Shown here: positions 7,833 through 11,591 of the stretch, piece after piece
Layout of the letters: each line of letters opens with the position of its first letter
Numbering within the stretch: position 1 is the first letter of the stretch
Source: a virus
Lineage: Duplodnaviria > Caudoviricetes
IMG/VR virus record: IMGVR_UViG_3300032301_000913
Location: 19,176 to 83,175 of that record
DNA length: 64,000 bases
Strand: one strand, 5' to 3'
Notes under the pieces: generated by a model
Seen by the model: only the letters and a program-made list of their open reading frames with translations
What the model was told of the DNA's origin: nothing
Databases searched by the model: none
Position numbers and translations under genes: made by a program

Positions 7833-8021
7833 ATGAGTACCGCAACAGTCACACCTATCTCGCGTAAAGCAAAGAATCGCTTCGCCAATCTTATGCAGTG
7901 TGATGGCACATGTATCATCGAGCAACACATAGGTGATCGTGTGTTTCTTACATCTGCAAATGGACGTAATCACTTCTGGGCAACACTTGACACAGACGCA
8001 CATTGGATGGTAGAATTATAA
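7833..8021 (+). CDS. small hypothetical protein (MSTATVTPISRKAKNRFANLM...)
   Basis: ORF track. Confidence 0.7.
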   Translation: MSTATVTPISRKAKNRFANLMQCDGTCIIEQHIGDRVFLTSANGRNHFWATLDTDAHWMVEL

Positions 8022-8112
8022 GACAAAGACGGAAGGGGTTTGCCGTCGCTCAATGTTAAAGTCACCCTGCGCGAACGAGAACAGATAATCTTAGCATAGG
8101 TGAGTGGTTCTT

Positions 8113-8145
8113 GTGGATCGGGGTGGTGCCTGATCCACTTTTTTT
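8113..8145 (+). terminator. intrinsic terminator
   Basis: GTGGATCG/TGATCCAC stem followed by T7. Confidence 0.8.
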
Positions 8146-8218
8146 AATTATTACATTTCATTATAACAGTAGCGTTATATGATAGGTTTTTTTAGATATT
8201 TATAAGTAAGCAGGTTCC

Positions 8219-8274
8219 GTGGCGATGGATTGTTCAGTAGAGATACCCTTCTCCCGTTGGTGCTGGTTGTCCCC
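8219..8274 (-). ncRNA. candidate small structured RNA, copy 1
   Basis: paralog of 10117-10170; leftward -10 TATCCT at 8277-8282; no ATG. Confidence 0.5.
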
Positions 8275-8310
8275 TTAGGATACAGCAAACTAGGACAGAA
8301 TCGCCACCCT

Positions 8311-8371
8311 TAGGACAGTCTGCACAGTGGCACAATGGCGCTGGATCTGACCCGTTCGGACGTGGCATCAT
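8311..8371 (+). promoter_or_regulatory. early promoter dyad TAGGACAGT-N6-AGTGGCAC, probably bidirectional
   Basis: rightward -10-like CATCAT 32 nt away; leftward TATCCT 28 nt away. Confidence 0.6.
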
Positions 8372-8416
8372 TCATTCAACGGCGCACCACTGACGCCGAC
8401 CACCACCACCAGACAA

Positions 8417-8893
8417 ATGACGAACGCCACCATGCAAGTTGTTATCAACGGTAACACTGTCGAAGGTACAGCGTCACAAATTGCTCTAATTATTGGCAAT
8501 TTTTCTGATGTAATGGGGCAAAAAGTTGCTCCTGTCACTATTACTCAGGAGGAGAAGTCTATCAAGTTTGTTGAGTTTTTTGGTGCAACGCTTGAGTCAC
8601 ACATTAAGGGTGGCAAGTTGTTTGTATCGGAACTCAACAAGTTGCGCCACCAAGGTAATGACTACCGCGCCATGATTCGTCTATACCACGACCTTGTAGA
8701 TGCTCCTACTAAAGGATGGGCAAAGCGCCGCCAGTTGTTGTTAACTACTAGCGCAATCTGGCGTTATACTTTCAAGGTTAACAAAGGCGGTCTTAAGTAT
8801 AAAATTGCCGCTGTTACAGAGTGTGAAGATTGTGGCGAATTTGCCAAATCTATGGTAGAGCGTATGATTGCTGAGAAACTCTGGGTTGCATAA
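8417..8893 (+). CDS. hypothetical protein
   Basis: ORF track; follows an early promoter. Confidence 0.75.
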   Translation: MTNATMQVVINGNTVEGTASQIALIIGNFSDVMGQKVAPVTITQEEKSIKFVEFFGATLESHIKGGKLFVSELNKLRHQGNDYRAMIRLYHDLVDAPTKGWAKRRQLLLTTSAIWRYTFKVNKGGLKYKIAAVTECEDCGEFAKSMVERMIAEKLWVA

Positions 8894-8976
8894 GCAACAC
8901 TGATCAGTCGGGGGGTGGCAACGCCCCCCTTCCGTGCTATTCTTTAGGAGTCAACCACCACCACCGGCACCGACCC

Positions 8977-9648
8977 ATGCAAGTCGCTCTCACCATCGCA
9001 TCCGGAAACTCTAAAACCGGTGTTATCCCAACTTCCATAAGTGAGCAATCATCCTGCGCTCCATCTTGTCCCTTTATTAATAAGGGTTGCTATGCAAAGT
9101 ATGGTCACCAGGTTATACACTGGCGCAAAGTTTCTAATACTGAGCGCGGTGTAGTTTGGGAGGAGTTTGTTACACTGATTCGCAAACTTTCCAAGGGTCA
9201 ACTATGGCGCCACAATGTCGCGGGTGATCTTCCCCACAATAATGGTGAGATTGATTATCTCAAACTGCGCCAACTGATTGATGCTAACCGTGGGCGTAAG
9301 GGTTACACTTACACACACCACACGCTAAATGATCACAACCGCGTGTGCTTAGAGAATGCAAACTCTATGGGGTTCACGGTTAACGTTAGCACCGAATCTA
9401 TTGAAGATGCTGACCGTGTGATGACTGAGTATAACCTACCCGCCACGGCAGTTGTTCACTCTGAAAAAACTGACCGATTCTATACAACAGAATCCGGTCG
9501 GAAAGTTATCACCTGCCCCGCTGCACTTTTCCCAGGTAAGGTAACCTGTGCAACTTGCGGTTTGTGTCAAGTAGCGGACCGCAAGTTCATTGTAGCGTTC
9601 CCCGCACATGGCACCGCTAAAAAGACAGTCAACCAGATCGTAGGTTGA
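8977..9648 (+). CDS. Cys-rich, radical-SAM-like phage protein (resembles DUF7227/gp88-like families)
   Basis: NSKTG..P, C-x3-C-x6-C, WRHNVAGD, YTYTH, CPA...TCATCGLC, FPAHG. Confidence 0.6.
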   Translation: MQVALTIASGNSKTGVIPTSISEQSSCAPSCPFINKGCYAKYGHQVIHWRKVSNTERGVVWEEFVTLIRKLSKGQLWRHNVAGDLPHNNGEIDYLKLRQLIDANRGRKGYTYTHHTLNDHNRVCLENANSMGFTVNVSTESIEDADRVMTEYNLPATAVVHSEKTDRFYTTESGRKVITCPAALFPGKVTCATCGLCQVADRKFIVAFPAHGTAKKTVNQIVG

Positions 9649-9656
9649 TAACATTT

Positions 9657-9684
9657 AAGGGGGGGCAATCCTCCCCCTTTTTTT
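9657..9684. terminator. intrinsic terminator, G/C hairpin plus T7
   Basis: AAGGGGG.../...CCCCCTT then T-run. Confidence 0.75.
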
Positions 9685-9767
9685 ATATTTTATCCCCACC
9701 TAAAATAGGGTCTGCCTCTAATCTAGCACGGGACCCGGACCCCTTGTCAACCCATAAAACCCCAGCA

Positions 9768-9828
9768 GTGGACAGTCTGCACAGTGGCACAATGGCGCTG
9801 GACTTAACTGGTTTCCCGGTGGTATTGT
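9768..9828 (+). promoter_or_regulatory. early promoter: dyad GTGGACAGT-N6-AGTGGCAC, -10 TATTGT
   Basis: 32 nt gap; 9751-9846 is a near-copy of 10192-10285; the left part matches 8313-8345. Confidence 0.75.
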
Positions 9829-9854
9829 ATGGGAGTCAACCACCACCGGCACCA

Positions 9855-10043
9855 ATGGCAACCGTATTGACTGGCGAAGCGATCAATTCCTTCCGCGCTA
9901 AAGTGTTATTGGGGGCACTTAAGTTAGAGTGCCTGGGTATGAAAAAAAGTGGACCGTCAGCATACTCTATCGCTAAAAAGGAGTATAACCTAAAAGGAAG
10001 CAAGCAGAGTGTATACAATCAACTTAAATCTATCATCGGTTGA
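9855..10043 (+). CDS. small basic hypothetical protein (MATVLTGEAINSFRAK...)
   Basis: ATG after the promoter leader; 3' part of track ORF 9645..10043. Confidence 0.65.
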   Translation: MATVLTGEAINSFRAKVLLGALKLECLGMKKSGPSAYSIAKKEYNLKGSKQSVYNQLKSIIG

Positions 10044-10051
10044 GTATACTT

Positions 10052-10080
10052 AAGGGGGGCAACATCTGCCCCCTTTTTTT
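10052..10080. terminator. intrinsic terminator
   Basis: GGGGGC/GCCCCC stem plus T7. Confidence 0.8.
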
Positions 10081-10116
10081 ATACTTACTTGTAACAATTA
10101 TTTTATGGCAGGGGCG

Positions 10117-10170
10117 GTGGCGATAGTTGGTCAACCGGCGACCCTGCCGGTGTTGGTGCTGATTGTCCCC
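10117..10170 (-). ncRNA. candidate small structured RNA, copy 2
   Basis: paralog of 8219-8274; leftward -10 TAGAAT at 10173-10178; no ATG. Confidence 0.5.
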
Positions 10171-10208
10171 ATATTCTACAGGCCCGCGATGCCCATAAAA
10201 CCCCAGCA

Positions 10209-10269
10209 GTGGACACTCAAAAAATTGGCACAAGGTCGGCAGACTTAACTGGTTCCCCGGTGGTATTGT
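10209..10269 (+). promoter_or_regulatory. bidirectional early promoter dyad GTGGACACT-N6-ATTGGCAC
   Basis: rightward TATTGT 32 nt away; leftward TAGAAT 30 nt away. Confidence 0.7.
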
Positions 10270-10295
10270 ATGGGAGTCCACCACACCAGACACCA

Positions 10296-10493
10296 ATGGC
10301 ACTACTCTCTCAGGCATCCGATCTTAAGACCCGTCAGCGGGTCTGGGTCAGCACCAACACTAGCACGGGTGAACAGACACACTCACATAGTGAAGGTGAT
10401 TATTTTCACTATGATGGCATGAGCGCTGCCACCATCGCGGGCATGAGTGCTCATGCCCACTGTAAGGATGTTAAGGGTATTGTGTGGGGGTGA
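10296..10493 (+). CDS. small hypothetical protein (MALLSQASDLKTRQRVWV...)
   Basis: ATG after the promoter leader. Confidence 0.65.
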   Translation: MALLSQASDLKTRQRVWVSTNTSTGEQTHSHSEGDYFHYDGMSAATIAGMSAHAHCKDVKGIVWG

Positions 10494-10537
10494 CCTAATT
10501 CCATGCTATGATTCTCAAGTCCCCCACCATTGGCACC

Positions 10538-10726
10538 ATGAGCACCACCTTTCCTCAGATCCTTTGGAACTGCACCAACCCCGACAATGGCACCATACAG
10601 TGGTCCACTGCTTGTCAGGCGGCAAAGGAGCACGGTCTTTGGGATGATTTCCGGACCGATTACGGTACTACTGCATCCTTTGGGGGAGTGGATACCGGCG
10701 AATTTTTAGTCTGGTTAGGATATTAA
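10538..10726 (+). CDS. small hypothetical protein (MSTTFPQILWNC...)
   Basis: follows -10 TATGAT; within track ORF 10508..10726. Confidence 0.65.
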   Translation: MSTTFPQILWNCTNPDNGTIQWSTACQAAKEHGLWDDFRTDYGTTASFGGVDTGEFLVWLGY

Positions 10727-11302: not shown

Positions 11303-11550
11303 AAAGTATAAAGAATTAAGAATGAATCAATAGTAGTTCTTAATTCTTTATACTTAATCCTGAGTATTAAGAATTACACAGGATTGAATGTAAGTTATTG
11401 TCAGTGGTGTGGTTTATTCTTTACATTCAGTCCTGTCTAATTCTTTATACTTAGTGCTGTTTAATTCTTTATACTTAGTGCTGTTTAATTAGATTTAATC
11501 AGTGCTGTTTAATTCTTTATACTTAGTGCTGTCTAATTCTTATTACTTAG
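11303..11550. repeat. AT-rich iteron-like array: five tandem 24-bp units plus inverted copies
   Basis: consensus TGCTGTTTAATTCTTTATACTTAG at 11431, 11455, 11479, 11503, 11527; inverted copies around 11303-11321 and 11360-11394. Confidence 0.9.
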
Positions 11551-11561
11551 TGGGATCCGGG

Positions 11562-11591
11562 AGGGTACAGTAGCGGGTGCCGATCTGTCAA
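11562..11591 (-). promoter_or_regulatory. leftward promoter TTGACA-N18-TACCCT pointing into the repeat array
   Basis: reverse complement of 11562-11591. Confidence 0.5.

Follow-up and report, generated by a model that had tools for sequence, protein, structure and literature searches.

Candidate genes for a conserved family of leftward small non-coding RNAs in freshwater T4-like cyanomyoviruses

Very few non-coding RNAs of cyanophages are known to us, and T4-like cyanophages, to our knowledge, lack the middle-mode regulators of T4. The lambda OOP RNA is a 77-nt phage antisense RNA that is convergent on cII, and RNA anti-CRISPRs are solitary CRISPR-repeat-like RNAs carried by phages. For cyanophages, a 2025 review lists the RNAs CfrI, wcaG, manA, glnA and abiF (PMC12197685). 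T4-type phages also possess PeSL cassettes, in which a terminator stem-loop is combined with an early promoter; these are co-oriented with genes and occur in many near-identical copies (PMC2839356, PMC4122927). The locus described here comprises two related intergenic elements of about 75 bases that, with a probability of roughly 60% judged from sequence, encode a conserved family of small non-coding RNAs found in freshwater T4-like cyanomyoviruses, with transcription running leftward. The original prediction of a phage small-RNA family was borne out in part. Comparison supports a paralogous and orthologous non-coding family whose structure belongs to the minus strand, which has a covarying hairpin, a conserved purine-rich loop and a conserved -10 hexamer, and which lacks an Rfam match; the roles suggested with it (protein decoy, anti-defence RNA, antisense regulator of host mRNAs) are conjecture, and a proposed pairing with a downstream CCCUGCC found no comparative support.

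The DNA analysed, hereafter the window, is a stretch of 64,000 nucleotides, bases 19176-83175 of an 83-kb IMG/VR record. It is part of a freshwater T4-like cyanomyovirus. Among named phages its closest relatives are two Synechococcus phages from fresh water, both Kyanoviridae: S-SRM01, which is the nearest, and DSL-LC03. All ORFs of more than 150 aa lie on the plus strand except for one embedded antisense ORF, and T4-type structural proteins, baseplate wedge and tail sheath among them, are encoded by these large ORFs. The first 16 kb consist of small gene cassettes, each with its own terminator and repeated promoter region, and a scan of the window found no tRNA or tmRNA. Between 4800 and 10300, the translation-start regions of small plus-strand genes are strikingly C/A-rich and lack a Shine-Dalgarno sequence (caccacacccccaccacatcATG and gaccaccaccaccagacaaATG are examples). 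At 11386-11576 on the plus strand, six 24-bp units resembling TGTTTAATTCTTTATACTTAGTGC stand in tandem and adjoin inverted repeats (repeat family D1).

The original prediction placed two copies of the element in this cassette region (8219-8274 and 10117-10170); its sequences and positions for them are exact, and so is the way it aligned them. The copies are about 76% alike and differ in their stems (repeat family D18). They share the plus-strand 19-mer GTTGGTGCTGRTTGTCCCC, at 8256-8274 and 10152-10170, which occurs twice in 64 kb where 0.01 occurrences would be expected. Along the plus strand, the upstream unit's terminator precedes each copy, and the repeated promoter region that serves the next gene follows it. 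The minus strand of both copies lacks an ATG and heads for the A-tract side of a plus-strand terminator (8113-8138 for copy 1, 10052-10076 for copy 2), again as originally described. On the minus strand the body of copy 1 runs from a GGGG discriminator through a CA-rich 5' stretch, the hairpins P1 and P2, CCAC and CCUGC to the start of an AU-rich tail. The features of the two copies are as follows.

8277-8282, minus strand: copy 1 -10 hexamer TATCCT, read directly; TAnnnT stands here in 81/83 family members
8274-8271, minus strand: copy 1 GGGG, read directly
8200-8276, minus strand: conserved body of the putative copy 1 RNA, found with covariance model R1 (87.3 bits, E ~3e-15)
8237-8255, minus strand: copy 1 hairpin P1, GGGAGA, loop AGGGUA, UCUCU(A)C, with one G.U pair and a bulged A
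8223-8236, minus strand: copy 1 tentative short hairpin P2 (UGAA...AUCG), its fourth pair mismatched here
8311-8334, no strand: copy 1 dyad TAGGACA-N10-TGGCACA, 28 nt to the minus-strand hexamer and ~31 nt to the plus-strand -10
8113-8199, minus strand: AU-rich stretch, then the upstream terminator seen from its back, where the copy 1 RNA may have its 3' part
10173-10178, minus strand: copy 2 -10 hexamer TAGAAT, read directly
10170-10167, minus strand: copy 2 GGGG, read directly
10098-10172, minus strand: conserved body of the putative copy 2 RNA, found with covariance model R1 (91 bits, E ~6e-16)
10134-10151, minus strand: copy 2 hairpin P1, ACCGGC, loop AGGGUC, GCCGGU
10121-10133, minus strand: copy 2 tentative P2 (UGAC...AUCG)
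10209-10232, no strand: copy 2 dyad GTGGACA-N10-TGGCACA, 30 nt to the minus-strand hexamer and 31 nt to the plus-strand -10
10264-10269, plus strand: -10 TATTGT of the gene after copy 2
10040-10097, minus strand: AU-rich tail and reverse face of the terminator 10052-10076, then UUAAGUAUAC; possible copy 2 3' end

The two copies belong to a wider family. An exact scan of IMG/VR with the 19-mer returned 11 true loci, and two further scans together with an nhmmer profile returned about 90 matches. The covariance model R1, built from alignment A2, then yielded 103 matches, 83 of them distinct, in IMG/VR loci and S-SRM01; with this model S-SRM01 has two matches, at 88585-88661 and 90137-90211, and DSL-LC03 one. 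Four larger IMG/VR records, S-SRM01 and the window's own record were searched whole, and exactly two copies each were found in three of the four IMG/VR records, in S-SRM01 and in the window's record, with none in the fourth. All five genomes that were searched whole and carry the element have thus kept two copies, and a genome's two copies are spaced 0.7-2.2 kb apart. The copies flank the same module in the genomes examined for this arrangement, namely the window, S-SRM01 and the distant relative G003. In the window the module (8417-9648, plus strand) encodes a 158-aa protein without a family and a Cys-rich DUF7227 protein (PF23872), the latter annotated as 'Gp37/Gp68-like' in S-SRM01; a PDB sequence search with both proteins found no relative. 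The single copy found in DSL-LC03 sits downstream of a DUF7227-sized gene. The element regions are unannotated in both isolate genomes, and the S-SRM01 genome paper makes no mention of the region.

In cellular genomes a pattern scan gave 120 chance matches, and 0 of the 80 loci tested fitted the covariance model. An Rfam 15 scan of the whole window gave 0 matches at the gathering threshold (the original prediction, too, had not recognised a described family), and at E values up to 10 the region 7900-10600 gave two weak unrelated matches, neither overlapping the element. As far as available libraries show, the family is previously undescribed, the 2023 viral structured-RNA screen (PMC10690425, about 10,000 candidates) lying outside this comparison. 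The element would share with CfrI of cyanophage S-PM2, and with wcaG, manA and glnA, the property of being a non-coding RNA of a T4-like cyanophage. CfrI, however, is about 225 nt long and antisense to the psbA/F-CphI region, and wcaG, manA and glnA are Rfam cis-regulatory leaders; the Rfam scans of the window matched none of the four. The element is none of the five RNAs in the 2025 review, abiF included. The cyanophage RNAs available for comparison, CfrI and a small number of cis-regulatory motifs, are from phages of marine and estuarine waters, and none matches the element.

The hairpin P1 had been claimed from two sequences to be a covarying stem, and the 83 distinct relatives bear this out. 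On the model-fitted alignment A3, 97.5% of P1 cells are paired and 6/6 pairs have changed on both sides. Covariation is 0.534 compared with 0.163 in shuffled alignments, a value that 0/500 shuffles reach, and with slid partners it is at most 0.09. The family holds 43 distinct P1 stems, among them ACCGGC, GGCAGA, GGCAGU, GGGAGA, AGGUGG and AGGGGC. P1 thus displays the generic property of a structured small RNA, a helix kept by compensatory changes beyond controls. The loop, likewise predicted to be conserved, is a purine-rich RRGGUM in which GGU is invariant across the family, and CCAC and CCUGCC are conserved 3' of the hairpins. Single-sequence folding chooses P1 in neither copy, and because the z-scores (-2.35 to +0.85) are unremarkable, the support for P1 is comparative only. 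P2, a four-pair helix UGAY...RUCG, is 80.9% paired, with U-A, U.G and C-G as its inner pair series; it is held tentative because of its many mismatches.

Two other pairings were considered. The proposed pairing of the copy 2 loop region, GGCAGGG with CCCUGCC, does exist and is the single-sequence minimum-energy fold of that copy, but it has no covariation in the family. When the P1 arm and loop are paired with CCUGCC family-wide, 74.1% of cells pair, compared with 75.2% in shuffles, and covariation is 0.093 compared with 0.102; this alternative helix was rejected because neither its pairing nor its covariation is better than that of shuffles. A plus-strand closing helix, GGCGAU/AUUGUC, was rejected on inspection, its GTACCGAT variants occurring without compensation.

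The strand of the structure can be read from its wobble pairs. P1 contains 52 G.U cells on the minus strand and 0 on the plus strand, where they become A.C mismatches; the 12 P1 mismatches on the minus strand include none that turns into G.U on the plus strand, which has 64 mismatches. For P2 the wobble cells number 73 on the minus strand and 15 on the plus strand. Many of the P1 wobble cells share descent, and still they fall at two P1 positions and in many different stem contexts. A second indication lies 2 nt upstream of GGGGACAAUC, where a TAnnnT hexamer (TAGACT, TATCTT, TAGGAT, TATCCT, TAGAAT, TATAAT and others) is present in all but two of the 83 members. Conservation among members is at least 90% at its positions 1, 2 and 6 and about 40% at its positions 3-5 (in tenths, 9-9-4-4-4-9), which is the usual signature of a sigma-70-type -10 element, as far as sequence conservation can identify one. 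The motif is really a TAnnnTA heptamer, from which a -10 can be read on both strands in about 80% of members; five lineages (L198, L156, L013, L064 and L090) have lost the plus-strand hexamer base, and all of them retain an intact minus-strand hexamer. The G.U asymmetry and the hexamer signature therefore place the element on the minus strand of the window.

The region around the predicted leftward start aligns with that of the window's plus-strand gene promoters, G-TAnnnT-AW-GGGRR(T)CAAYCA(C/G)CACC (family D9), as in G-TATTGT-AT-GGGAGTCAACCACCACC compared with G-TATCCT-AA-GGGGACAACCAGCACC. The putative leftward promoter has no -35 element and would depend on a dyad, TGTGCCA-N10-TGGCACA, so that the immediate-early timing originally proposed for the RNAs is conjectural. 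The dyad stands between the two -10 sequences, separated from the minus-strand hexamer by 28-30 nt and from the plus-strand -10 by 31 nt. A half-site was located in 73 members, and in 67 of these it begins 35-37 nt upstream of the hexamer. The original prediction had linked the leftward -10 boxes TATCCT and TAGAAT to such a dyad, and they read as it stated, with fixed spacing from hexamer to dyad and from hexamer to GGGG. The dyad (repeat family D3) is found at 8311-8334, 9768-9791, 10209-10232 and other places, with TGTCCAC and TGTCCTA as variant half-sites, and many small plus-strand genes have it some 31 nt ahead of their -10; the dyad is probably the mark of a regulon under a dimeric DNA-binding protein. 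Seven other dyad-type junctions in the window lack the element, and the junction read at 9650-9855 shows none. This third terminator-to-promoter junction carries, within 9690-9750 on the minus strand, TTGACA-19-TAGATT, a possible further leftward start.

Where a leftward RNA would end is less sharply defined. CCUGCC is followed by an AU-rich stretch of 25-40 nt in copy-2-type loci and of about 70 nt in the window's copy 1, and next comes the reverse face of the upstream terminator, which in copy-2-type loci has a partial U-run behind it and in copy-1-type loci lacks one. No clean intrinsic terminator was found on the minus strand of copy-1-type loci; in the window's copy 1 the minus strand has no U-tract after the terminator-face hairpin (8113-8199). 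If it ends within 10040-10097, the copy 2 RNA might measure about 115-125 nt. Related sequence is present in two freshwater metatranscriptomes, solely as unstranded Logan contigs, one of which is 4.5 kb long and spans several genes. Because these contigs are unstranded and multi-gene, DNA carry-over and plus-strand read-through are possible sources of them, and they carry no information about strand, RNA ends or expression.

A separate candidate small RNA faces copy 1 from the plus strand, at 7987-8145, and converges on the putative leftward RNA of that copy. It has a near-consensus promoter, TTGACA-18-TAGAAT with TG, at the end of the ORF 7833-8021, followed by about 120 nt without an ORF and a strong terminator at 8113-8145, and it is kept in 26 distinct relatives. 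The stem of its 5' hairpin varies (GACGG/CCGUC, GAUGG/CCAUC, GGAGG/CCUCC, GGGAGG/CCUCCC, GAGAGG/CCUCUC), and its loop AAGGGGUUUG displays GGGGU, as P1 does. Consensus folding gives an energy of -27 for the plus strand and of -16 for the minus strand.

The position of the element invites an explanation at the level of DNA, in which it would belong to a cassette at the terminator/promoter junction that is the cyanophage counterpart of a PeSL, with a hairpin that forms in single-stranded minus-strand DNA and is conserved for recombination, protein binding or single-strand initiation. The element does occupy the exact point at which a terminator gives way to a repeated promoter, within the region of small gene cassettes, and PeSLs are composite terminator/promoter motifs at such junctions (PMC4122927). 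Like PeSLs, it is found where terminators meet promoters among the small genes of a plastic part of a T4-like genome, and the junction around it, made up of a terminator, an AT-rich stretch and the repeated dyad promoter, is PeSL-like. DNA hairpins tolerate G.T wobble too, so that a single-stranded DNA hairpin would likewise fit the wobble asymmetry, and the RNA product is a prediction. The element nevertheless departs from PeSLs in lying on the opposite strand, at only two junctions, and in having a covarying hairpin and two diverged copies per genome, about 76% alike and with different stems, where PeSLs have many near-identical copies. This explanation also leaves aside the textbook conservation of the -10, the start region that resembles neighbouring gene promoters, and the absence of the element from the seven other dyad-type junctions and from 9650-9855; all told, it is improbable. 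Somewhat more improbable is a leftward start that is a by-product of a symmetric dyad-dependent promoter, arising since the dyad and TAnnnTA work both ways, with an RNA that is functionless or just blocks read-through from upstream by transcriptional interference or antisense pairing. The dyad is nearly equidistant from the two -10 sequences (28-30 nt leftward, 31 nt rightward), the heptamer serves both strands in about 80% of members, and the RNA would converge on the upstream terminator, all of which speaks for such a by-product. A functionless RNA, however, would not keep 43 compensated stems, an invariant GGU, and CCAC and CCUGCC, and the other dyad promoters of the window have no such unit.

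The plus strand offers a further alternative, a cis-regulatory leader or a small ORF, and this is very unlikely. In its favour, copy 2 contains an ORF at 10105-10248, ATGGCAGG..., which would specify a hydrophobic peptide of 47 aa ahead of the next gene. In addition, a copy-2-type element and the gene downstream of it share one metatranscriptome contig, and the plus strand has an AT-rich, -10-like sequence upstream. Against it, the types differ by 2 nt, so that the frame is not kept, and copy 1 stops after about 20 codons. The small ORF (MAGAVA...) was rejected, neither its frame nor its start codon being conserved: the element is not coding because indels of 1-2 nt separate the types, the frame of the 19-mer differs, and the ATG of the copy 2 ORF is missing from the window's copy 1 and from one relative (L010). 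A plus-strand leader or riboswitch fares no better, because P1 has its 64 mismatches and no wobble pair on that strand and because the element lies upstream, not downstream, of the dyad promoter.

The reading as genes for leftward small RNAs is therefore preferred, and it can be set out as a sequence of steps. Transcription would run leftward, against the otherwise uniformly rightward gene flow, from a -10-only promoter in which TAnnnT is followed by two bases and GGGG. The dyad operator TGTGCCA-N10-TGGCACA would be common to this promoter and to the rightward promoter of the next cassette; with the operator shared, the RNA is probably switched on together with the next gene cassette. The 5' part of the RNA would carry the CA-rich stretch ACAAYCAGCACCAAC, which resembles neighbouring mRNA leaders. 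P1 would follow, its stem free to change while paired and its purine-rich loop holding the invariant GGU, and then the short hairpin P2 and the conserved CCAC and CCUGCC. An AU-rich tail would lead into the back of the upstream terminator, giving an RNA of roughly 115-160 nt if it stops there.

If the element is an RNA, its most likely mode of action, and still a tentative one, is regulation in trans or action as a decoy. A protein, or C-rich phage or host mRNA leaders that lack a Shine-Dalgarno sequence, may be recognised by a surface made up of the P1 loop and the leader-like 5' stretch; this reading is suggested by the invariant loop on a freely varying stem, by the leader-like 5' stretch and by the conserved CCAC and CCUGCC. 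A crude duplex scan of both RNAs against the translation starts of 75 plus-strand ORFs returned nothing above shuffled RNAs except self-overlap. The second choice, which is doubtful, is a cis-antisense or insulator role against convergent or read-through transcripts, in the manner of lambda OOP, and the convergent geometry would allow such an antisense or anti-read-through role. Like OOP, the element would specify a short phage RNA without an ORF, made from its own promoter (here a predicted one) against a neighbouring gene and towards its 3' end. OOP, however, overlaps the 3' end of the cII coding region and ends at a clear intrinsic terminator, whereas the element keeps its conserved structured part entirely within the spacer and would reach the upstream terminator or 3' UTR with its non-conserved tail alone; the two have no sequence or Rfam relation.

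A more speculative reading, and a long shot, makes the RNA pair a phage counter-defence or take-over device. In one version the RNAs would be solitary CRISPR-repeat-like decoys, each with a hairpin and an ACUGAAC-type handle, aimed at two host CRISPR systems; in the other they would be mimics, copying the CA-rich leaders of phage early mRNAs and titrating a host or phage RNA-binding factor. In either version the P1 stem would be under selection that is diversifying but preserves pairing. The short hairpin and (A)CUGAAC of the element recall what we take to be the hairpin-ACUGAAAC end of cyanobacterial type I-D/III repeats, and the resemblance to RNA anti-CRISPRs extends to a promoter-driven, spacer-less unit with a short hairpin and to two diverged copies per phage. 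Among close relatives the stem is free and the loop fixed, a pattern not expected of a stem-specific mimic of Cas6 type. A metagenome scan for CRISPR-like arrays of the loop-plus-handle motif was saturated by chance matches, and the loci with several matches were satellites of 37 nt and 45 nt.

The family is strongly supported by comparison, its strand is resolved, and its putative promoter is linked to a dyad operator that it shares with neighbouring genes. Because it is present in two cultured phage-host systems, those of S-SRM01 and DSL-LC03, it is directly testable. If the RNAs are expressed, they would add a layer of leftward RNA to a region annotated so far as hypothetical ORFs only, and would provide a handle on early gene control in T4-like cyanophages.
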